Source: a virus
Reading direction: 5' to 3' (one strand)
UHGV virus genome: UHGV-0200858
Length of the DNA stretch: 36,291 nucleotides
Under the pieces are notes generated by a model, which made no database searches, had not been told where the DNA came from, and was given only the letters and a program-made list of their open reading frames with translations. This document shows, in pieces, positions 3,042-36,291 of the stretch. A program made the translations under genes and the position numbers. Each line of letters opens with the position of its first letter. The stretch's first letter is position 1.

Positions 3042-4226
3042 TTAGGCAGCGTCTAAAGGGCTTAAATCAAGTTCTAGGTCTTCCGGTTCCAAATCAGCTA
3101 ACTGTGCATTCATCCACTTAGCTAAATCTTCATCGGTTACGACAAAATCCGGTTTTTCTTCCCATTCATTAAGATACATCGGACGATCTGGATTTGCTGC
3201 GATATATTCATTAATGAAGTTTAATGCTTTCTTGAGAGTTTTAATCGGGCGTGTTTCCGTCCATCCATCCGGTACATCATGTTTTGAGGCAGTCTTACCC
3301 TTAACATGAATCTTTAACCCTTTCTCTAAGTCGATTGCTTGCCATCCCTTTTCAAACAGATGATTGAATATCAATTCATGTTTGTATGTGGATAATTTGG
3401 CTTGTTGTTGCATTCTCTTTTTAGAGTTGGAGGCGAAACCGATTTTAATAAATTCATCTCCTAATTTCTGAATATAGAGATAAGTCGGACGTGTCTTGTC
3501 AATTCTTCTTAGATTATATTCACCTGTTTCTAATGAACGTTGGTTTGAAAGGCAATCTGGACAAATCAGGATTCCACGGTCGCAAGGTTCACGGGTAGTT
3601 AAATCCCAATCCCCATGATGCGGACAATTACAGCGCAAGAGTGTCTCTCTTACTCCCTTCTCTTCTGACAACCAACAAACGAAGGTGTATCCGAATTCTT
3701 TACACAATTCCTTAATCTGTGCTTCTCTCTTAGCTCTCAATTCAGTGAGCGTATTACATCCGTTTCTACGAGCCAGATTGCTCTCTTTGGTGCAGCATGA
3801 ACAGTTTAAATTTCTACGGAATGCCAGATTAAGAGGGATAGTGAATTCTTCGTTGTGATTCAAGCAGAGAAATTTTGCTTTGGTTCCTTTGACGTGATTG
3901 TATTCACCATCCCAACCTAAAAACTGTTTCCCTTCCTGTTTCCCTCGTTCGGTTAGCTGGATTTTATATCCTTCCTCATTCCTTTTAAGGCTTCCCCCAT
4001 TGATTTGATTTAACTGTTTCAGTGCATGAATGCTGGAAAGTCCGGTAGGTTGATATGACACCTGAAAACGGGCTTCTACTCCTGATACATACGGTAAAAC
4101 AAAACCATCGAAGGTTAATCCGTGTTTCTCACACTGTTTAATGATTCTGGCTTGCACTTCTTCCGGTGTCTTCTGGTTTGGGTGAGTCTTAACAAAAACA
4201 ATCTCGTTTGCAAATGCTAGTTTCAT
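3042..4226 (-). CDS. GIY-YIG-like (T5orf172-type) domain protein with N-terminal Cys/His zinc-ribbon-like repeats; putative homing-endonuclease-like nuclease
   Basis: C-terminal half contains YLYIQKLGDEFIKIGFASNSKKR...E motif resembling GIY-YIG/T5orf172 fold; upstream CxxC/CxC/HH clusters (LNCSCC, RCNCPHHG, CPDC); paralogous to the 4381..4950 product. Confidence 0.55.
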   Translation of the reverse strand: MKLAFANEIVFVKTHPNQKTPEEVQARIIKQCEKHGLTFDGFVLPYVSGVEARFQVSYQPTGLSSIHALKQLNQINGGSLKRNEEGYKIQLTERGKQEGKQFLGWDGEYNHVKGTKAKFLCLNHNEEFTIPLNLAFRRNLNCSCCTKESNLARRNGCNTLTELRAKREAQIKELCKEFGYTFVCWLSEEKGVRETLLRCNCPHHGDWDLTTREPCDRGILICPDCLSNQRSLETGEYNLRRIDKTRPTYLYIQKLGDEFIKIGFASNSKKRMQQQAKLSTYKHELIFNHLFEKGWQAIDLEKGLKIHVKGKTASKHDVPDGWTETRPIKTLKKALNFINEYIAANPDRPMYLNEWEEKPDFVVTDEDLAKWMNAQLADLEPEDLELDLSPLDAA

Positions 4227-4380: not shown

Positions 4381-4950
4381 ATGATTCCAGTAATGGCTAA
4401 AGATATTGTTTTTACTCCTAAATCATCCCGTGCTGTAACTCCACCAGCATTAGAACAACGCATTCTTACTCACATCAAAGATAATGACTTACCGTTAGTC
4501 TTTCATGGCTTTCTGGGTGAGTTTAAAGGGCTTCACACGAGAATTGCTCTTACATGTACTCGCTGCGGTGATAGAGCCGACAAATCAGCTACTAACCTGC
4601 TTAATGAAGGCAAACGCTGTGTATGTTTCAAGAGTGATTATTTTCAATATAAAGCGGGTGTACCATATCTCTATGTGATGCAATCCGGCGATATTGGTAA
4701 ATTTGGTGTAACAAAATCGATTATCAAACGTAGGGTTAATCTGGGCTTACGTAATCCCGGTCATAACTTTGATATTGTCTATGCTCGTGAAATGCCATCA
4801 ATGAAACATGCGCTAGCCACTGAGCGAACAATAAAGAGAATGTTGGATGTGGGTATAGGCGGGATTGAATACGGCAAAACTGAAACATTCCACTACTGCA
4901 ATAAATCACTAAACAATATAAAGAATATTGCAAGTGTGGAGTGGAACTAA
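4381..4950 (+). CDS. GIY-YIG-like (T5orf172-type) domain protein with zinc ribbon (189 aa)
   Basis: CTRCG...CVC Cys cluster followed by YLYVMQSGDIGKFGVTKS...RRVNL...E motif; stop overlaps the start of the downstream helicase gene (TAATG). Confidence 0.55.
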   Translation: MIPVMAKDIVFTPKSSRAVTPPALEQRILTHIKDNDLPLVFHGFLGEFKGLHTRIALTCTRCGDRADKSATNLLNEGKRCVCFKSDYFQYKAGVPYLYVMQSGDIGKFGVTKSIIKRRVNLGLRNPGHNFDIVYAREMPSMKHALATERTIKRMLDVGIGGIEYGKTETFHYCNKSLNNIKNIASVEWN

Positions 4951-6440
4951 TGCAAGATATTAACATTCATTTTCAAGATTACAGTTTCGTTAAGGTTGAA
5001 TGCTCTCCTTCTATCGGAATGGAATTAAGAGATTATTTCTCGTTTGAGGTTGAAGGGGCTAGATTTAGCCCCCGCTACAAATATTCCGGCTGGGATGGAA
5101 AGATAAGACTGTTTACGCATGAGAACACCTTACCAATCGGATTATTGAAAACATTGGGTATCTTCGCTAAAAACATGGGCTATAGCGTATGGGTAGACCC
5201 CAGATTGCTTGAGAAGGAAGATGTAACCAAAGAATCAATTGATTCATGGATTGACTCTTTAGAAGTGTATTCCGGTAGCAATAAAATCAATCCTTACTGG
5301 TATCAAAGAGAGGCAGTATTTCAGGGTATCCATAATCGCCGTAGAATGCTGGTTCTTCCTACCAGTGCCGGAAAGTCATTGATTGCTTGTATGCTGTCTC
5401 GTTGGTACTTAGAGAACTACACCGGAAAGATTCTAATCATTGTCCCGACTACATCGCTGGTGGTTCAAATGAGGGATGATTTTGTCGATTATAGGCTATT
5501 CCCTTATGAAGCAATCCATACAATGATGAGTGGTAGCGGGAAACATCCGGGAGACAGGTTAATCACTGTTTCAACATGGCAATCAGCTTGCAAGATGCCT
5601 CCTGAATGGTTCCGACAATATGGAATGTTGATAGTTGATGAATCGCATCGTGCCAGCGCAAAGAATATCACCAATATCATCAACGGAATGAATCATTGTC
5701 AGTTTAAAATCGGTATGACTGGTTCCCCGAAAGAATCAAAGTGCCATTTAATGCAATATGTCGGGTTGTTCGGTGATATTCAGAAGATAGTAGCAATCAA
5801 GCAATTGATGGATGACGGACAAGTTACCCAGCTTAAAATTAATGCTCTCTTCCTTAAGTACAAAGATGAAGAATGTAAAGCAATGCGGGGCAAAGATTAT
5901 CAGGAAGAGATTAAATTCATCAATGCTCATAAGGTAAGGAATAAACTGGCTTGTAATTTGGCCTTAAAACTCGCCAGGAAGCAAGAAAACGTATTTTTGA
6001 TGTTCCGGTACTCTAAGCATGGAAAAATGCTTTATAATGCGTTACAGCGCGTTTACGATAAGGTTTATTACGTTTCCAGTGAGATTACCACCGCCGAACG
6101 CGATGCCTTAAAGAAAATGGCTGAAAATGAGAAAGGATTGATTGTAGTTGCCTCCTATGGTGTTTTCTCTACTGGCGTTTCAATTAAGAATCTTCATCAT
6201 GTCATTTTCGGTCATCCAGTGAAGGAATCAACCATTGTCCGGCAATCAATAGGACGTGCTCTTAGGAAACATGGTAGTAAAGCAATTGCGTATGTGTGGG
6301 ATTTGATAGATGTGATTTGTTCGAAAGACAAGAAAGGAAAATATACACGCAAGAATTATGCTTTAACTCATGGCCTCCAGAGAATCAATACTTACATATC
6401 AGATCGCTTCGAATATGTAACGAAAACAATCGAGATTTAA
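4941..6440 (+). CDS. uvsW: SF2 DExH-box helicase, UvsW-like
   Basis: Walker A LPTSAGKS, DExH box IVDESH, motifs ILIIVPTT, VYYVSSE, IVVASYGVFSTG, QSIGRALRKHGSK; overall layout and several motifs recall T4 UvsW (from memory, not searched). Track start is GTG; likely ATG start at about 4950 overlapping upstream stop. Confidence 0.8.
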   Translation: MELMQDINIHFQDYSFVKVECSPSIGMELRDYFSFEVEGARFSPRYKYSGWDGKIRLFTHENTLPIGLLKTLGIFAKNMGYSVWVDPRLLEKEDVTKESIDSWIDSLEVYSGSNKINPYWYQREAVFQGIHNRRRMLVLPTSAGKSLIACMLSRWYLENYTGKILIIVPTTSLVVQMRDDFVDYRLFPYEAIHTMMSGSGKHPGDRLITVSTWQSACKMPPEWFRQYGMLIVDESHRASAKNITNIINGMNHCQFKIGMTGSPKESKCHLMQYVGLFGDIQKIVAIKQLMDDGQVTQLKINALFLKYKDEECKAMRGKDYQEEIKFINAHKVRNKLACNLALKLARKQENVFLMFRYSKHGKMLYNALQRVYDKVYYVSSEITTAERDALKKMAENEKGLIVVASYGVFSTGVSIKNLHHVIFGHPVKESTIVRQSIGRALRKHGSKAIAYVWDLIDVICSKDKKGKYTRKNYALTHGLQRINTYISDRFEYVTKTIEI

Positions 6441-6483
6441 TAAATAGGGGCTTTAATGCCCCTTTATTCTACGGAGATTAAAA

Positions 6484-6747
6484 ATGATTAGCTTTAAACG
6501 TTTTTTGGTTGAGGCCGCTATTGACGGTTTTATGAGTAAGATTTATTCTTGTAATACTATCGAGGGATTAAATGAACTTGAGGCATATTATGAGAAGCGC
6601 AAGAAAGAAACAGAATTGAAACCTGCTGATGATATTTCGATCCGTGATGCCATCGCCGGACGACGCAAGCAACTGGAAGCGGAGAACGAGCCGGATGAGG
6701 AGCCAGAAGAGGATTTTTCTATCATCAATTTGTGCCAGATAAAATAA
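6484..6747 (+). CDS. small acidic protein, possible UvsW.1-like helicase partner (87 aa)
   Basis: Immediately downstream of the helicase, acidic C-terminus (EAENEPDEEPEEDF); position and size recall T4 uvsW.1; followed by terminator. Confidence 0.35.
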   Translation: MISFKRFLVEAAIDGFMSKIYSCNTIEGLNELEAYYEKRKKETELKPADDISIRDAIAGRRKQLEAENEPDEEPEEDFSIINLCQIK

Positions 6748-27364: not shown

Positions 27365-29269
27365 TTAGAACGATGTTACCCAGCTACGGCCTCTATTTGG
27401 GCGTCTGGCGATGTTTTTACGTTGTGGTCGTGTGATTGGCTTATTTTCTTCGATTTGCTCGTCAGATTGCGATTTAGGAGCTTTTACGGGTTCTTCGACA
27501 ACACGGTTTAAGCTGTCTTTCATTGCGATGAGTTTATCCCATGACATTTTTGAAAGGACGTAGCGAGAAGCCGCTGTAGCATACACGGCGCAGTCGAGCG
27601 CCTCGTTCCTAACGCCTGGGTTCTTTACCCATCTCACGCCAGTAGTAGTACGCTTGACAGATTCACTTAAAAGCTGATCGAGATAATCATCAGGAACGGT
27701 GTCTGATATTTCTAAGCCAATATGAGGATTATCTTTCAGGTTCCTAGCCAACATTTCACGAAATGCAGTTTTACCCACATTAACACCCAACATAAGCAAT
27801 TCATGACCACCTGTGCGGGTAGGTTTAACCGGAATGATCGGAGCGTTACCAGCAGAACTACCTTTGATAGCGTGTAAGTTCTTCCACTTGCCGCAAATAC
27901 GGTATCCAGCTTGAGTGAATCGACCGTTCGATGTATCAAGGAAGCTGGCGAGCATAGGAACACGATCACCCGATACAGTAGTAAATCTGGTTTTATGGAA
28001 GTTGATTAATCTATCCCATACAGGGGATTCATATCGTTCACAGTTATGATCGTAAAAGCTGCGGTGATCCAGAATATAAATCTTATCCTTTGCCACGCCC
28101 ATGATTGTAGTTTCTGCGCGATCTAATTGCTGGTCAGTACCCGCACACAAGAAAATCACGTCATCAGGGATATTCTCGATAGAAACATCTGTTTTGAGTT
28201 GTTCCAGTTCATTTGCTTCTACTGCCGTGTCCTGATCGTCGTATACCTTGCCTAACACGGTGTTATAAAATGATTGTAAATCAAAGGATTGCCACGCATG
28301 ACTAAAATCAACCACACAAGCGCGGATCGTGCTGAAAGGTGAATACAGACGGCTGATCCAGAATCCTGCTACTTCACTTTCACGGGTTGCTCTCCACTCG
28401 CCTTGTGCTACTGCCCTGATCCGCTCTCCTTCTGTCCATGCGTTCTTACAGTGGGGGCAAATATAACGAGCGGTATCAGGATCGGGTAAGTTCTTACCAT
28501 CGATGTTACGCCATTCAAATTGAACGTTTTCCCACTCGATCACCTGGTGTCTACCGCAATGAGGACACGGAACAAAAAACATACGCATATCGCTTGATAA
28601 CCATTGCTGGTTAATGCTTCCCAGCTTACTGGTCGGGGTACTGGATACGACTAATCGACCTTCATCGCCAAAGGTAGTTAAACGGTTAGCAGCCAGTGCC
28701 ACCGGATCACCTTCTTCTGAGGCTGTAGCAGCATCGATTTCGTCAAGCAATCCAACCTTTGCGGTCTTACCACGTAGGGTTGATGGACTGGTAAGCGATA
28801 CCATGTACAGGAAGTGATTCGTTTTTAGCTGTAGCTGGTTATTGTTGTTAACCGCATTGCGATCATTCTTGTCTGTAACCACGTCTTTTAATGCATCACA
28901 TGCTTCGATAGACGGTCGGATCTTACCAGCGAGATATTGAGACATTTCTTTAGCGGTTGATTGTCCGATAATCATATTGCATGGATCGTTAGCCATCTGG
29001 TTAAACAGGATGCCGTTCAGGATGGTAGTCTTTCCGATCTGCGCACTGGTCATCAGAACATACTTTTTCTTGTTCTCAAGGAAAGGAGCATCAATCATGC
29101 CTTTCTGGAATGACAGCAATTTAACTTTATCCCCAGCTTGAGGACCATCTACCAGCACCATATTCGCTTCGCACCATTCCGATGGAAGGAGTTTAGGCGG
29201 TGGCGTAATATATTTTGCGGCATTTCTAAGAATTCTTTTTAGTTTTGTTTTGTTCGAAATTAGTTTCAT
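27365..29269 (-). CDS. terL: terminase large subunit (634 aa)
   Basis: Size, position upstream of portal, N-terminal ATPase-like region (Walker A-like MTSAQIGKT, Walker B-like VGLLDEID) and C-terminal nuclease-like region with conserved acidic residues. Confidence 0.8.
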
Positions 29270-29961: not shown

Positions 29962-30219
29962 TTGAGAATTCACTATTGTTTGGAGGAAACTACTATGACT
30001 ACTAAAGCTACTCGCGGACGTCCTTGCCGTTTTGATCGTGAACAACTGGCAGCGATTGTAAAAGCGTACTATCAAGCACCGAAAGGTAAAGCCGAAAAAG
30101 AACAAGTATTGAGCGAACACGGTATTTCAATCGCTCAATTCTACAAATCACTCCATAAAGTTGATTTGAAATTCTTTGTTCAGGTTGACGGTGAAATGGT
30201 AGAAGCAACAGGAATTTGA
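29962..30219 (+). CDS. small HTH-like DNA-binding protein (paralog family)
   Basis: RGRPCRFDREQLAAIVKAYY ... GISIAQFYKSLHKV pattern; likely true start at internal ATG about 29995 preceded by GGAGGA; followed by terminator. Confidence 0.45.
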   Translation: MRIHYCLEETTMTTKATRGRPCRFDREQLAAIVKAYYQAPKGKAEKEQVLSEHGISIAQFYKSLHKVDLKFFVQVDGEMVEATGI

Positions 30220-31693: not shown

Positions 31694-32203
31694 TTAGAGC
31701 ATTTCTAAGCCATCGTGATAGCCGTAGAAGCCATTCTGAGAAGAGAAACAGATAGGAGCATAATCATCATCTTCGTCGTCTTCATCTTCGTCATAATCGT
31801 TTTTAGGGGCTTCCTGAGCGTCTTCTTTACCGTAGTTAAACATGGCTTCGTCAATCTCTTGAAGGGTTACGAAACTACCCAGATCTTGATCACCGGAACG
31901 GACTTCGAACGGCAGGTCATCACGAACAATAATTGCTGGTAGATTCTGGTATTTCGCACGATCTTGATCGGTGAAGCAGTTAACTACGATAGTAGGTTTC
32001 TTGTTCTTGCAAAACGAATACCAAGCACTAGAAAAGCTGGATTCATCGGAATCAAAAAGGATGTTATAACCACGTTCAACGAAGATCTTCATTAAACGGT
32101 CATTGTGAAAGCTATCTGCATCCAGACCTAACAGGATGAAAGGAGTAGTAGTCTTGTTCTTGTACATAGTTGGTAATCCTCTAAAAGAAAGTGAATCAAA
32201 CAA
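31694..32203 (-). CDS. early protein with acidic C-terminal tail (169 aa)
   Basis: First gene of the leftward unit leaving the control region; C-terminal DYDEDEDDEDDDY acidic run; N-terminal alpha/beta-like region without recognisable catalytic motif. Confidence 0.45.
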   Translation of the reverse strand: MFDSLSFRGLPTMYKNKTTTPFILLGLDADSFHNDRLMKIFVERGYNILFDSDESSFSSAWYSFCKNKKPTIVVNCFTDQDRAKYQNLPAIIVRDDLPFEVRSGDQDLGSFVTLQEIDEAMFNYGKEDAQEAPKNDYDEDEDDEDDDYAPICFSSQNGFYGYHDGLEML

Positions 32204-32753
32204 ATTACACTAGTATTTATAACGAGAATTTTTTATCTATTTGGAAGTGATTGGTATTCAGTCTGGCTAAAGCCATCCTTCATGTACTAGAACAAGAATT
32301 ATACAAAACAAATTTTCTTCTATAATAATATTATATAATAGTTCTTCGTTTTGATTAAATGATCATCAAACCAGTATTGACGCTCTCCAGAGCGTCTGCG
32401 AAGCAATCTATTACCTTCTAGTATTATCAAAGTGATTCTAACTACCTTTCTAGTAACCAGTTAGTAACCACCTAGTATTAAATCCCTTTCTAAGAAAATC
32501 CTTTCAAAAGTGAGTGAACGCCGTAGGCGTGAACGTGAGCGAAGCGAACTATCCAATCCCTTTCGAATCCTGCTTGCAGGTCTTAGAAGGTGTTGGTGGG
32601 CGCTACGCGCACGGCTACGCCGTATTCTTTTTGTGAGATCTTTCTTGAACGCTAGTGAGAGAAAGCGAACAAAAAGGAGAACGTTAGTTCGAGTTTTATA
32701 TTCTATGGTCTGTGTGGTCAAATGCTTTTGCAAATCATACACTTACGTGATTA

Positions 32754-32878
32754 AAGTGTAGGGTTAGTGTAGGTGTGTAGGTTTCATAGTGTAGGTTTGG
32801 ACATGTTCTAGTGTAGGTTTACTGGCTAGTGTAGTGTAGGCCAATCCCTTTCATGTGTAGGTTTGTAGTGTAGGTTTT
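32754..32878 (+). repeat. direct-repeat (iteron-like) array, about 8 copies of GTGTAGG(T)TT
   Basis: Read directly: AGTGTAGGGTT, AGTGTAGGTG, TGTGTAGGTTT, AGTGTAGGTTT, AGTGTAGGTTT, AGTGTAGTGTAGG, TGTGTAGGTTT, AGTGTAGGTTT, all same orientation, spacing 10-20 bp, in non-coding AT-rich region. Confidence 0.8.
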
Positions 32879-32896
32879 TCATCAAAAATTTTGATA
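32878..32896. promoter_or_regulatory. near-palindromic site ATCAAAAATTTTGAT (operator candidate, copy 1)
   Basis: CATCAAAAATTTTGATAAAAA immediately after the iteron array; dyad symmetric. Confidence 0.4.
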
Positions 32897-32959
32897 AAAA
32901 ATTCTTGTATATTATTTAACCAAAAAATCATCAAAAAATAGCTGTAAGTTAATGATTTA

Positions 32960-32993
32960 AAAGGAATTGTCAAAAGGTCACCGTGCTATAATA
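32960..32993 (+). promoter_or_regulatory. extended -10 promoter candidate (TGcTATAAT) (approx)
   Basis: GGAATTGTCAAAAGGTCACCGTGCTATAATAGG: TGnTATAAT extended -10 with upstream TTGTCA-like element. Confidence 0.45.
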
Positions 32994-33029
32994 GGTTATA
33001 AAGGTTGATAATCCTGATCAGCCGTTTTC

Positions 33030-33046
33030 ACACAAAAATTTTGATA
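33030..33046. promoter_or_regulatory. near-palindromic site CAAAAATTTTGATAG (operator candidate, copy 2)
   Basis: Second copy of the AAAAATTTTGATA dyad about 150 bp from copy 1 and about 27 bp upstream of a consensus -35. Confidence 0.4.
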
Positions 33047-33072
33047 GTCATTTCTCGCCTAGATCATGGGTA

Positions 33073-33101
33073 TTGACAATAGTCAAGAACTATTTTATAC
33101 T
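33073..33101 (+). promoter_or_regulatory. near-consensus sigma70 promoter (TTGACA-17-TATACT) driving the rightward early unit
   Basis: TTGACAATAGTCAAGAACTATTTTATACT; the -35 lies within the inverted repeat TTGAC-N4-GTCAA. Confidence 0.6.
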
Positions 33102-33428
33102 TTTTCTCACTGGTGGGGGTTGAAATTTTCAAAACAATCCCCATATAGATGATAGGCAAGAATTTCTCTTGTATAAATACATGCATGAAAATGATTGTTC
33201 ACTTCTGAAATCTCCAGATTCACTGTTAATTCATACAGCACTGGTTAGATATACAGTGCTTTTTCGGTTGAATAATGTACGAATTGATTAATTATTAATC
33301 TTCTCTTTAGCAATTCGTGCTCCCACTGATCGGATATACAGTAGTTTTACAGGGTTTTTCGAAAATCATTTTATAAATAGATATGTCGAGAGCGAAAAGC
33401 TCTTTTTAAAGTTTTCATTATTCCACAA

Positions 33429-33623
33429 TTGAGGATTCTACTTATGGCTAGACCTGTTAAATTTACCCGTGAAATGATTGTTGATATTGCTAAACGCTTT
33501 TATGGTGACACTGAACGAGGCGGTGAGAACTTCTTTAAGAAGGAAGGAATTGATAGAAGCGGATTCTACAAACTAATGAAGAAATACGAGATTCAAGTAA
33601 AGATTAACGTTCAAGTTTGTTAA
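33429..33623 (+). CDS. small HTH-like DNA-binding protein (64 aa), paralog of 29962..30219
   Basis: ARPVKFTREMIVDIAKRFY ... GIDRSGFYKLMKKYEIQV pattern shared with the other two small modules; AGGA SD. Confidence 0.45.
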   Translation: MRILLMARPVKFTREMIVDIAKRFYGDTERGGENFFKKEGIDRSGFYKLMKKYEIQVKINVQVC

Positions 33624-33661
33624 TCACCTTTCACTGAGAATTATATGATGGCTTTAAAAAT

Positions 33662-33696
33662 AAAAAAGCCTCCCTGTTGGCGCAAGGAGGCTTTTA
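33662..33696 (+). terminator. hairpin terminator/attenuator immediately upstream of the 33742 gene (approx)
   Basis: GCCTCC CTGTTGGCGCAA GGAGGC followed by TTTT; A-run on the 5' side. Confidence 0.4.
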
Positions 33697-33741
33697 GCAT
33701 GAAACATTAAAAACAAACACAGAGCATTCAGGAGTATTTAT

Positions 33742-34773
33742 ATGAAAAATTCTAAGCGCATCACCTTCAACCTGTTCATCAAAGCAAACGGCAAACTGAA
33801 CATTACTGTCATGGAAGGTAAAGCAAGCAAACAAGACAAATCCTTTGAAGTAGTATCCGGTAAGACTCTGACCGAAATGCGTCAGAATGCTGGCATCAAA
33901 GACGGTGCTGAATGGCAGATCACTAACCGTTTCGACAAACGTCACGTTAAACCTACACTGGTAGAAGGTGAATCCGTTTATTGCTTCGCTCGTGCTGTTA
34001 AAGCTGATGAGACTTACTATCTCGCTGTTGTTAAAACTGCTTCCGGCTTCCGTGCTGTAATGCACCACAAGAGCAAGCGTAACGAATACGGTGTAGAGAC
34101 CCAGGAAGTTGCAAAACGCTTCCGTACTGTTGCTACTGAATCCACTGTAAAAGATGTTTCTGGTACTGTTAACACCGCTAAAGGTGGTTCTTTCTACAAC
34201 CACGCATTACAGGTTACTTCCTCCTTCTTCTGCAAAAAAGAAGCTGTGAAAGAAGTTGCTCCGGTAGTAGTTGAAGAAGTTAAAGAAGAAGTTGCAGTGG
34301 TTGAATCTTCCGAAGTTGAAGCACTGAAAGCACGAATCGCTGAACTGGAAGCTGAAATGACAGCAGTTAAAGCAGAAAACGCATCTCTGAAAGCAGAACT
34401 GGCAGCACAGGAAACTACTTTCGAAGTAGCAGCGGTTGAAGTTGAAGCAGTTGAAGAAAAATCCATTGATGAAGAACTGGAAGAACTCCTTAACTATCGC
34501 TGGGGTAACGGTGAAGTAGAAGAAGAACAGGAAAACGAGAAAGAAGCTGATCCGGTAGTAGTTCCGGTTGAAGTTGAAGCAGAATCCGCACCAGTTACTA
34601 ACTTTGAATCCCTGCGCAATAACTTTATGGCTAAATTCAAAACCACTTGGGAAGATACCGAAGAAGAACAAGAAGAGATTGAAGTAAACGAAGACGAGAT
34701 CCGCGAAGCACAGATGGCACTGCATGACGCTATCTATGACACCAACTACAGCGCCTACGCATACGCAGCTTAA
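33742..34773 (+). CDS. highly acidic early protein with N-terminal globular domain and C-terminal E/V/A-rich coiled coil (343 aa)
   Basis: Strong SD (AGGAG), codon usage strongly biased to major E. coli-type codons (CTG, AAA, GAA, GTT, CGT), C-terminal half dominated by E/A/V repeats (EVEAVEEK, VVPVEVEAE); candidate host-takeover/anti-defence protein. Confidence 0.55.
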   Translation: MKNSKRITFNLFIKANGKLNITVMEGKASKQDKSFEVVSGKTLTEMRQNAGIKDGAEWQITNRFDKRHVKPTLVEGESVYCFARAVKADETYYLAVVKTASGFRAVMHHKSKRNEYGVETQEVAKRFRTVATESTVKDVSGTVNTAKGGSFYNHALQVTSSFFCKKEAVKEVAPVVVEEVKEEVAVVESSEVEALKARIAELEAEMTAVKAENASLKAELAAQETTFEVAAVEVEAVEEKSIDEELEELLNYRWGNGEVEEEQENEKEADPVVVPVEVEAESAPVTNFESLRNNFMAKFKTTWEDTEEEQEEIEVNEDEIREAQMALHDAIYDTNYSAYAYAA

Positions 34774-34788
34774 TAGAGGGGTGAATCT

Positions 34789-35031
34789 ATGATGAATCAA
34801 AACAAAGAATTTCTGGGTAATCTGATGTTAGAAATTACCAAAATTAAAGAAAGAATGGTAGCGATGGAATCAGAGATTAAAACTCTTAAAGCTGATAATA
34901 AGGCGTTGAGAAAGTCCTTAAAGCTGATTGATGAGACTAATGCGGTTATGATGGATCATGTATTCCCTGAGTGGCGAAATGAAACTAAACCTACACAACA
35001 CAAGAAACCTACACTTCGGATTGTTGCATAA
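34789..35031 (+). CDS. small coiled-coil protein (80 aa)
   Basis: GGGGTGA SD; heptad-like region EITKIKERMVAMESEIKTLKADNKALRKSLKLIDE; followed by hairpin. Confidence 0.45.
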   Translation: MMNQNKEFLGNLMLEITKIKERMVAMESEIKTLKADNKALRKSLKLIDETNAVMMDHVFPEWRNETKPTQHKKPTLRIVA

Positions 35032-35060
35032 AAAAAGGGAGTCCCATTTAAGAGACTCCC
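35029..35060. terminator. hairpin terminator between convergent units (approx)
   Basis: A-run, GGGAGTC CCATTTAAGA GACTCCC; T-run on the minus strand, so strongest as a minus-strand terminator. Confidence 0.45.
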
Positions 35061-35133
35061 TATAGTTAGGTTAGGTTTGCACAACAAAGATGAGGTTATA
35101 ATGAACATAATGCTACATTATTCTTTAAAGCCA

Positions 35134-35730: not shown

Positions 35731-36291
35731 TTAGGACACATCGAATTCATCATCTTCTTCGGATTCTTCTTGTTCTTCCGGTTCATCCATTAACGGTAAT
35801 TCTTCTTCGTCCTCGTCTTCACCTAATTCTGCATTTTCGAACATATCCCCTACTTCATTTAAACGACGCTCGATGATCTCCCTTAGCTTATTCTTCAACG
35901 TTTTCTGATCGGTTGCAGATTCGAGAATTTCTAAAGCATCGATTGTGGCGATCTGCAAAATAGTCTGCTTCACTTTCCCGCAGTATTCCGCTAGTTCCTG
36001 TTCTACATACCCTACTGGAATAAGTTGGTTCATCGCTTCCTGGTTCTCGCGTTCGGCAGCATCTGCTAAAGCACGTTCACGGCGTAATTTCTCGACATCG
36101 ATTTGTTCCTTAATAGAAGTTTCTTTGAGCGGGTTAATGATATTTTTCAAGACCCATTCTGTACCCTCTTTTGCTGGTACGCGTCGTGTATTGGTATTAA
36201 ATGGCATTCCTCGTTGCTGCCATTTCTTAGCTGCGTTGATTGTATAGCCGTATAAGCGGGAAATTTCTGTAAGGGTTAATTCTTCTTTCAT
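35731..36291 (-). CDS. Nu1-like winged-HTH DNA-binding protein, putative terminase small subunit (186 aa)
   Basis: N-terminal LTLTEISRLYGYTINAAKKWQQRGMP resembles the lambda Nu1 HTH (QNWQEQGMP), followed by EKLRRE coiled coil and acidic C-terminus; the window ends exactly at the start codon. Confidence 0.5.
   Translation of the reverse strand: MKEELTLTEISRLYGYTINAAKKWQQRGMPFNTNTRRVPAKEGTEWVLKNIINPLKETSIKEQIDVEKLRRERALADAAERENQEAMNQLIPVGYVEQELAEYCGKVKQTILQIATIDALEILESATDQKTLKNKLREIIERRLNEVGDMFENAELGEDEDEEELPLMDEPEEQEESEEDDEFDVS

Follow-up and report, generated by a model that had tools for sequence, protein, structure and literature searches.

We report that a GC-rich island at positions 32500-32700 of the virus genome UHGV-0200858 (36,291 nt; hereafter the window) is, with good confidence, a functional non-coding cis element made of multiple hairpins rather than a packaging site or the remnant of a gene. 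The window corresponds to an uncharacterized temperate siphovirus-like prophage of Escherichia coli of ~36.3 kb. The island belongs to a cassette that also contains an array of direct repeats (iterons), and related prophages carry at least five exchangeable cassettes with unrelated iterons in the same slot, which we term types A (the type of the window) to E. The context of an iteron array and a type-specific protein makes an origin element the leading reading, and the cassette is probably the replication origin of the phage. As to how the island works, we lean, at somewhat less than even confidence, toward an origin-associated DNA hairpin element that provides single-strand initiation or loading signals.

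A non-coding gap of 1.57 kb (32168-33741) holds the island. The neighbors of the gap are a 157-aa gene that reads leftward and, in the rightward direction, a 59-aa gene with a 343-aa gene behind it. The 59-aa gene is the only feature of the gap in the PGAP annotation. From left to right, the gap comprises a variable stretch, a leader, the island, a spacer of ~64-65 bp, eight iterons, an AT-rich stretch with a palindrome, and two sigma-70-type promoters. GC content reaches 0.503 at 32510-32690 and 0.585 in the island core (32518-32623), compared with 0.304 in the left non-coding flank, 0.335 in the right flank and 0.414 in the whole window. These values bear out the island that had been recognized in an earlier reading made from the sequence alone. 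The palindrome ACGCCGTAGGCGT (32518-32530) and the repeats CTACGCGC (32603-32610) and CTACGCCG (32615-32622) described in that sequence-only reading are likewise present where it had placed them, and the two repeats are the right halves of neighboring perfect dyads, GCGCTACGCGC (32600-32610) and ACGGCTACGCCGT (32611-32623). Two further units that it had called repeated, GTGAGCGAAGCGAAC (32535-32549, 15 nt) and GTGAGAGAAAGCGAAC (32655-32670, 16 nt), both exist and are similar, not identical.

Conservation sets the island apart from its surroundings. A search of IMG/VR with an exact 21-mer of the island yielded 11 prophage contigs, and further loci were added via protein look-ups and a metagenome scan. 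Over 31 distinct type-A loci, diversity is 0.014 in the island and 0.091 in the adjacent right spacer; the same loci give 0.058 for the leader, 0.034 for the iterons, 0.13-0.16 for the remaining gap and 0.019-0.027 for the 343-aa gene (0.019 for the part encoding its N-terminal domain). Two more distant loci were found via homologues of the 343-aa protein: L175, which encodes a protein 65% identical to that of the window and has the same iterons, and L174, the deepest relative, with a protein of 43% identity and iterons of sequence TTAGTGCAGGG. For the core, identity is 75% with L175 and 73% with L174, whereas the spacer, iterons, right-hand non-coding DNA and protein gene of L174 are only 32-48% identical. 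The core is thus the most constrained piece of the region, independent of iteron specificity. It provides a good sequence marker for the type-A lineage, as does the leader (32480-32510) for the whole family.

Of 5426 E. coli genomes, 51 contain matches to the island, each at one or two places and only in this prophage slot, which rules out a dispersed repeat of the REP/BIME or MITE kind. Searches of the non-coding region against phage and plasmid records (megablast and blastn) returned nothing. Rfam 15 gave no match overlapping the core and nothing relevant in types B, C and D; its sole hit in the island was to a small nucleolar RNA model (32643-32674) that scored 16.7 bits against a gathering score of 95 bits (E = 4.4). 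The 16-mer CGTGAGCGAAGCGAAC has more than 120 matches in viral contigs, none of which extends beyond ~20 nt, and we attribute these to chance, as we do two of the three extra matches (L012 and L014) of an apical 18-mer.

That the island might be a decayed gene fragment or a small protein gene had been suggested from its sequence, and ORFs (open reading frames) of 83 and 40 aa on the + strand and 93 aa on the - strand do cross it. The same reading had dismissed these frames as spurious and Arg-rich, with which we agree: all start with GTG, their translations are rich in Arg, and none has a ribosome-binding site. Moreover, the commonest allele has GCG in place of the GTG that starts the 83-aa ORF, island copies differ by 1- and 2-nt insertions or deletions, tblastn against phage records gave no match, and the other cassette types have no homologous ORF. 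Conservation of the island beyond that of the neighboring genes is also a poor fit with decay. A coding origin is therefore hardly credible.

The left border of the exchangeable cassette is the leader AAATCCCTTTCTAAGAAAATCCTTTCAAAAG (32480-32510, + strand), which shows few changes in all cassette types and is 82% identical in L174. A -10-like hexamer (TAAAAT, TACAAT or TTAAAT) stands directly before CCCTT in the leader of all types; promoter scoring found no good -35 element. To its right, our model of the island is a string of local hairpins: P1, hpM, a central hairpin, GCGC-N3-GCGC, P3, hp2 and hp3. P1 (32518-32530, + strand; ACGCC-GTA-GGCGT) has a 5-bp stem and a GNA triloop and is invariant in the window, L175 and L174, with one copy (L013) carrying a C-to-T change that yields a G·U pair. 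The adjoining hpM (32535-32549, + strand; GTGAG-CGAAG-CGAAC) contains the mini-hairpin motif GCGAAGC with a GAA loop, includes tandem G·A mismatches, and is stable on the + strand only. The central imperfect hairpin (32549-32599; apical stem CCTG-CTTG-CAGG) is predicted in all three homologues, and its apical stem, CCUG/CAGG in the window, becomes CCAGC/GCUGG in L174 (CCAGC...GCTGG in the DNA). It contains the 12-mers CCAATCCCTTTC, which is seen again at 32841 within the iteron array, and GGTCTTAGAAGG, which is seen again in types B (inverted) and C.

The next two hairpins are assigned to the - strand. The first (32600-32610) reads GCGC-TAC-GCGC on the + strand and GCGC-GTA-GCGC, containing GCGTAGC, on the - strand. 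No change of the stem is seen in type A, type B, L174 or L175, and type C retains the stem around a 4-nt loop; in types A and B, variation is limited to the middle base of the loop (TAC/TTC). The second, P3 (32611-32623; ACGGC-TAC-GCCGT, or ACGGC-GTA-GCCGT on the - strand), has a stem that is invariant in type A, L175 and L174 and a loop that is either TAC or TGC, and types B and C have an analogue, GGGC-TAC/AAA/TAAA-GCCC. Immediately 3' of P3 on the + strand is the T-run ATTCTTTTTG (32624-32633), which is kept in L175, missing in L174 and shifted by 7-10 nt in types B-E. With the T-run behind it, P3 or the long hairpin resembles an intrinsic terminator on the + strand. This run pairs with a downstream A-run in the AT-rich stem of hp2 (32625-32678, + strand), a segment that is 40% identical in L174, where the alignment columns are uncertain. 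The small hairpin hp3 (32679-32690; GAAC-GTTA-GTTC) keeps its stem in L175, with the loop changed to GAA, and is unrecognizable in L174.

The loops follow a pattern that is symmetrical between the strands. Those of the left half are GTA and GAA on the + strand and those of the right half are GTA/GAA and GTA/GCA on the - strand, with polymorphism at the central N only (types A and B). Read 5' to 3' on its own strand, each arm presents a 13-nt C-GTA-G hairpin and then a GCGNAGC-type hairpin. The window holds 17 perfect triloop hairpins of the GNA/TNC class, and the sole three with GC-rich, C-G-closed stems lie within 106 bp of the island. Likewise, four of the 11 copies of GCGNAGC in the window fall within 32398-32620.

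When folded as + strand RNA, positions 32495-32700 reach -71.6 kcal/mol, compared with a shuffle mean of -55.3 (z = -3.6; 0/200 shuffles as good), and separate shuffles of 32510-32690 gave z = -4.3. RNAfold draws this segment as an imperfect hairpin of 36 bp (32526-32623), a U-run and a second hairpin. We rejected the single 36-bp hairpin: its lower half is broken by C·A and A·C mismatches in L174 and L175, and the same changes are compensatory within local hairpins. For example, hpM of L174 and L175 reads GCGAA-CGAAG-TGAGC, in which two pairs are doubly changed (U-A to C-G and G-C to A-U). The hpM consensus is GYGAR-CGAAG-YGARC, and its two compensatory changes disrupt the alternative long-range helix.

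Under the local-hairpin model, 93.8% of cells are paired and seven pairs are changed on both sides, compared with a shuffle mean of 2.8; none of 500 shuffles reaches seven, and slid controls give 0-4. Four doubly changed pairs across type A, L175 and L174 are in hp2, one of which appears as U-A, U·G and C-G. Within type A only, 53 of 60 pairs never vary and covariation is not significant (64/500), although four of the five stem changes keep + strand pairing, one of them a U-A to C-G double change. Overall, the compensatory changes support a string of local hairpins over one long hairpin, with the caveat that mirrored half-sites of a palindrome bound by a dimer would mimic such a signal. Fold energy, the triloop hairpins, the GCGNAGC copies and conservation together exceed what is expected by chance.

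Approximately 65 bp to the right of the island, eight direct iterons, GTGTAGG(TTT), occupy the + strand at about 32755-32877. GTGTAGG occurs 14 times in the window where 2.0 copies are expected, and the eight copies in the array are all on the + strand. The array is followed by an AT-rich stretch (32878-32950; GC 0.23-0.25) that contains the perfect palindrome ATCAAAAATTTTGAT (32881-32895), is conserved in every cassette type, and forms the right cassette border. The region thus shows the arrangement looked for in an iteron origin, at least three direct repeats next to AT-rich DNA. Two inverted iterons (AAACCTACAC twice, 18 bp apart; 34986-35014, - strand) are situated at the end of an 80-aa gene, 2.1 kb from the main array, and are kept in all type-A loci. 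A strong hairpin (35038-35062) occurs just after this pair.

The cassette types differ in both iterons and protein. The iteron of type A (the window) is GTGTAGGTTT and its protein has 343 aa; the corresponding features are TTTCAGGGGCAAAAAT and 313 aa in type B (L132, L140), TGGAATCTTGGGGATTT and 320 aa in type C (L135, L139), ACGGGGA and 337 aa in type D (L151, L152), and CTTGTACATC and 371 aa in type E (L150). Types A, B and C each have a GC-rich island of their own, and types D and E have one GC hairpin in common. The borders of the swapped block are exact, namely the leader and the palindrome ATCAAA(A/T)ATTTTGAT, and an identical island is found with differing left flanks. A metagenome scan revealed no new cassette type, and a genome scan gave no match to further types.

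The type-specific protein of the window is encoded by the 343-aa orphan gene (33742-34773, + strand), ~0.9 kb downstream of the iterons, and is presumed to bind them. Its five versions (A-E) have no mutual similarity by BLASTP, whereas every neighboring protein is 55-98% identical, and protein version is linked to island and iteron type in 35/35 type-A loci and 9/9 type-B loci. The versions, of 313-371 aa, are built alike: a β-rich N-terminal region of ~170 aa precedes an acidic coiled coil, and the last two residues are usually AA. They also have a few motifs in common. In one chimera, L149, a B-type N-domain is joined to a C-type C-terminus and the iterons are of type B. Because the iterons follow the N-domain, it is probably this domain that recognizes them. 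The family has five representatives among 1.84 billion proteins, and a profile search with it recovered type-A members only among the matches listed.

Packaging sites were considered since the phage has a lambda-type gpA/Nu1 terminase and the island, like the cos sites of lambda-like phages, is GC-rich with dyad symmetry, which had led the sequence-only reading to propose cos or pac. In lambda-type cos, cosN is read by the large terminase subunit and cosB by the small one, such that the same terminase implies the same site. Between types A and B, however, the large subunits (TerL) are 95% identical and the small subunits (TerS) 92% identical, with a near-identical N-terminal DNA-binding segment in TerS, while the islands and iterons are unrelated. 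A nearly unchanged terminase accompanied by unrelated islands in effect rules out cos. Furthermore, a lambda-type cos lies directly upstream of the small-terminase gene, and the island does not adjoin either terminase gene, at distances of 3.0 kb to TerS and 3.2 kb to TerL. The position of a lambda-like cos would fall outside the window, which ends exactly at the TerS start codon, by the junction with the host gene ycdX. We consider a packaging role for the island very improbable.

The origin reading is drawn from the iterons next to AT-rich DNA, from the protein that co-varies with them and from the absence of another initiator in the prophage; no primase, polymerase, DnaB-type helicase or other candidate initiator was found among the window proteins. 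The combination of iterons, an AT-rich region and a palindrome is also that of the lambda origin. Lambda, 434, phi80 and P22 are otherwise alike relatives with exchangeable initiator and iteron specificities. Unlike those of lambda, the iterons here are non-coding and lie ~0.9 kb upstream of the protein gene rather than inside it, the 343-aa protein has no similarity to O, and the hairpin cluster is far larger than the 28-bp lambda palindrome.

For the hairpins themselves, the closest comparisons are with plasmid RSF1010 and phage G4. The iterons of RSF1010 are bound by RepC, and an AT-rich stretch lies between them and the single-strand initiation (ssi) region. The ssiA and ssiB signals, inverted repeats of 40 nt, occupy complementary strands next to the iterons and become exposed after initiator binding at oriV and its unwinding by the helicase (PMC8567376). 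Mini-hairpins of the GCGNAGC, CCGAAGG and CGGCGAAAGCCG kinds are found at the primase start site of G4 and at RSF1010 ssiA, and are unusually stable in DNA (PMC13037366). As in the window, RSF1010 oriV places direct iterons beside a large imperfect inverted repeat (PMC8567376, PMC13037366), each arm of which folds on its own strand with a C-GNA-G mini-hairpin, so that outward leading-strand starts are possible. In keeping with IncQ ssiA/ssiB, the hairpin signals of the island are on complementary strands, inverted and ~65 bp from the iterons. In contrast to RSF1010, the window has no RepB'-type primase, RepA helicase or RepC homologue, two hairpins per arm instead of one, and no sequence similarity to any plasmid. 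Without RepB' and RepA, the island is not a member of the IncQ ssi family and would only work like one.

The complementary-strand origin of G4 and G4-type ssi signals are clusters of GC-rich, SSB-resistant hairpins of the GCGAAAGC/GCGNAGC type that mark the start site of primase (PMC13037366). For a phage that does not encode a primase, a signal for the host enzyme, as in G4, would be fitting. The G4 origin acts on a single-stranded genome and on one strand only, unlike the two-strand arrangement proposed here.

By analogy with these systems, the type-specific protein of ~340 aa would bind the eight iterons and open the adjoining DNA, whereupon both halves of the island would become single-stranded. 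Each half could then fold on its own strand into two GC-rich GNA-triloop mini-hairpins, P1 and hpM on the + strand and P3 and the GCGC hairpin on the - strand. Such hairpins may resist SSB and mark the leading-strand start for DnaG or a PriA primosome, with synthesis proceeding outward both ways from the island center. Of this scheme, the paired hairpins, the strong conservation, the strand-symmetric loops and the linkage of the island to the iterons and a co-varying protein are shown; origin function of the iterons, their binding by the protein, hairpin formation in single-stranded DNA and recruitment of priming enzymes are inferred.

Several observations weigh against this scheme. The presumed initiator has no recognizable fold or family: the 343-aa protein has no PHROG hit, Pfam yields nothing beyond a sub-threshold match to the coiled coil of TSC22, and a low-confidence structure model gave no significant fold match. 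A search for DnaA and IHF boxes, which are not obligatory at phage origins, found none, with just one DnaA-like site (one mismatch) far to the left and no IHF consensus. The iterons separate the AT-rich stretch from the island, unlike in RSF1010, and, with no phage primase in the window, the comparison with that plasmid is one of analogy only. GNA loops are lacking in types C, D and E, of which D and E have only one GC hairpin, and the P3 loop of one type-B variant reads AAA. The covariation comes from only three independent lineages (type A, L175 and L174), which makes its statistics thin. Finally, the type-A + strand folds far better as RNA than the - strand (-71.6 versus -55.6 kcal/mol), and the U-run after the last GC hairpin and the U·G intermediate in hp2 also fit an RNA.

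These last points lead to a possible but doubtful rival, a structured + strand RNA of ~130-190 nt that would start at the leader and end at the hairpin and U-run near 32633. Its role could be replication control, a primer or R-loop precursor running into the G-rich iterons, or a terminator that shields the iterons from transcription. Type A has ~7 G·U pairs as opposed to one C·A mismatch, and the stem changes of this type mostly preserve + strand pairing, as described above. A terminator scan flagged P3 together with ATTCTTTTT, a GC hairpin and then a U-rich stretch are present on the + strand in all types, and the -10-like hexamer is conserved just upstream in the leader. Most iteron types are G-rich on the + strand, and the phage encodes UvsW and UvsW.1. 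In T4, UvsW is the helicase that removes origin R-loops. ColE1 RNA II/RNA I, the R-loops of T4 oriF and oriG, and lambda oop offer parallels, in that a structured transcript of multiple stem-loops lies just upstream of the initiation site; the likeness extends to the G-rich downstream non-template strand and UvsW here.

Other observations count against such an RNA. Promoter scoring yields only weak candidates that disagree between strands, and the window allele has TAGTAA where its relatives have TAGAAT. A conserved intrinsic terminator is doubtful: L174 lacks the U-run and types B-E have it shifted, so that a hairpin directly followed by a U-run is found only in type A and L175. We rejected a + strand bias from G·U pairs, which is seen in type A only and neither across homologues nor by z-score across types. 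The central hairpin prefers the + strand in types A and B and the - strand in L174 and L175, and fold z-scores are weak for types B and C and absent for D. With DNA parameters, the two strands fold about equally (z = -2.4 and -2.8). The long hairpin is broken in its lower half in L174 and L175, and an RNA leaves the U-N-C loops of the right half, which are GNA on the other strand, unexplained. Complementarity of the island to downstream mRNA is 9-11 nt in cognate and non-cognate pairs alike, and nothing else in the window is complementary. For the structured non-coding RNA proposed in the sequence-only reading, the pairing is backed by compensatory changes, and the RNA part is possible but less well backed, given the lack of an Rfam match in any type searched, of a convincing conserved promoter, of a hairpin and U-run kept in the deepest relative, and of a consistent strand preference.

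A second rival, which we regard as unlikely, takes the dyads as duplex binding sites for one or more phage or host proteins common to all types, with the hairpins a by-product. Within type A, loops and bulges are conserved as much as stems, which suggests sequence-specific recognition, and the short motifs CCAATCCCTTTC, GGTCTTAGAAGG, GAGCGAAGCGA and TAATATCTTT recur across types and orientations. The half-sites of a dimer, changing in mirror fashion, would also resemble compensatory pairs. Yet type C keeps the arms while the spacer between them grows from 3 to 4 nt, a change that is tolerable for a hairpin and not for a dimer site. Operators usually have longer arms than 4-5 bp, and the arms here, of 4-5 bp at a distance of 3 nt, are below that size. 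In addition, hpM is asymmetric and pairs through tandem G·A mismatches, and it is therefore no palindrome in duplex DNA. Of the mechanisms considered, signals at the DNA level are favored over a + strand RNA, and both over duplex operators.

A broader reading, which we put forward only as a possibility, is that the cassette is an undescribed phage replication module, consisting of an orphan, hypervariable iteron-binding initiator with at least five specificities and a conserved multi-hairpin element. With the same reserve, the hairpins of such a module might recruit host priming or loading enzymes or else act as primer or R-loop RNA. The island and its partner protein are not covered by Rfam, PHROGs, Pfam or annotated phage and plasmid records, but their logic, which combines iterons with a dedicated initiator and hairpin signals, is familiar from known replicons.

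Other elements of the gap deserve mention. The palindrome ATCAAAAATTTTGAT and a second copy of its core (33034-33044) flank an extended -10 promoter, TGCTATAAT (32984-32992), and a TTGACA-17-TATACT promoter (33073-33101) comes next. This set is conserved in every type and hence probably represents a common operator and promoter region of the rightward early operon. In many type-B loci (L134, L136, L137, L141-L148), two or three GTGTAGG sites like those of type A stand right after the B iterons and overlap the TTGACA-17-TATACT promoter. Such an arrangement suggests either that the types recombined in the past or that a GTGTAGG-binding protein regulates the promoter. Short direct repeats in a single orientation, AAAGTGA(T/A)T, CTAGTA/CTAGAA and AATCCCTTTC, are dense in the leaders of every type and on the left side of the gap (32186-32520); CTAG is normally rare in E. 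coli. These repeats look like sites for a factor common to all types. A hairpin element, CAGTCTGGCTAAAGCCATCC, is found at 32257-32277 near the start of the 157-aa gene, and its type-B version, CAGTCGGGCAAAGCCCTCC, nearly equals the last hairpin of the type-B and type-C islands, so that the element is present twice per region in direct orientation.

Between the 59-aa and 343-aa genes, a strong 13-bp GC-rich hairpin with A-run and T-run flanks (33664-33695) looks like a bidirectional terminator. The 59-aa protein (33444-33623) is a paralogue of a 74-aa protein encoded at 29995-30219, with 31-39% identity in cross-type pairs. Both are small and basic, their N-termini read MARPVKFTRE and RGRPCRFDRE, and neither has a family match.

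Near-identical or identical copies of the prophage sit inside ycdX, beside ghrA, in E. coli chromosomes, and the family occurs in about 50-70 of 5426 complete E. coli genomes (~1%). No close cultured phage was found, the best match of the large terminase being 44% identical. This gpA-type TerL, with ATPase and nuclease domains (27365-29269, - strand), is followed by genes for portal, fused protease/capsid, tape measure, tail fibers and endolysin, all on the - strand. The Nu1-like TerS (35731-36291) is 6.4 kb from TerL, and the regulatory and iteron region lies wholly in between. A large serine recombinase is encoded at 1274-2968. Homologues of UvsW (N-terminal domain and helicase core) and UvsW.1 at 4941-6747 are flanked by two CapR homology domain proteins (3042-4226 and 4381-4950); the temperate, siphovirus-like prophage that carries the UvsW/UvsW.1 pair lacks genes for primase, polymerase and a DnaB-type helicase.

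Two host genomes show further aspects of the family. E. coli UTME-9 (NZ_CP157110.1) carries both a type-A copy (3412426-3413992) and a type-B copy (2804797-2805377), which fits with compatibility of cassette types in one cell. In the type-B locus L132 (5203-6832) of E. coli PE15 (NZ_CP041628.1), an ISApl1 transposase and mcr-1.1 are located ~0.4 kb downstream of the type-specific protein gene, indicating that a colistin-resistance transposon has landed in this prophage.

If the origin reading is correct, a prophage family present in ~1% of complete E. coli genomes would initiate replication with parts that databases do not recognize, among them an initiator family with several specificities and no annotated relative and a cis element that is conserved more strongly than the surrounding genes. 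Such parts could allow replication to start in a phage that does not encode its own primase, helicase loader or polymerase. Signals for entry of the host primase or PriA, known from single-stranded phages and plasmids, would then extend to a temperate tailed phage; were the RNA reading true instead, the island would represent a new origin-associated RNA. Swapping of cassettes could let related prophages coexist in one cell by avoiding cross-talk, and the family would offer a model for how origin specificity diversifies through cassette exchange.

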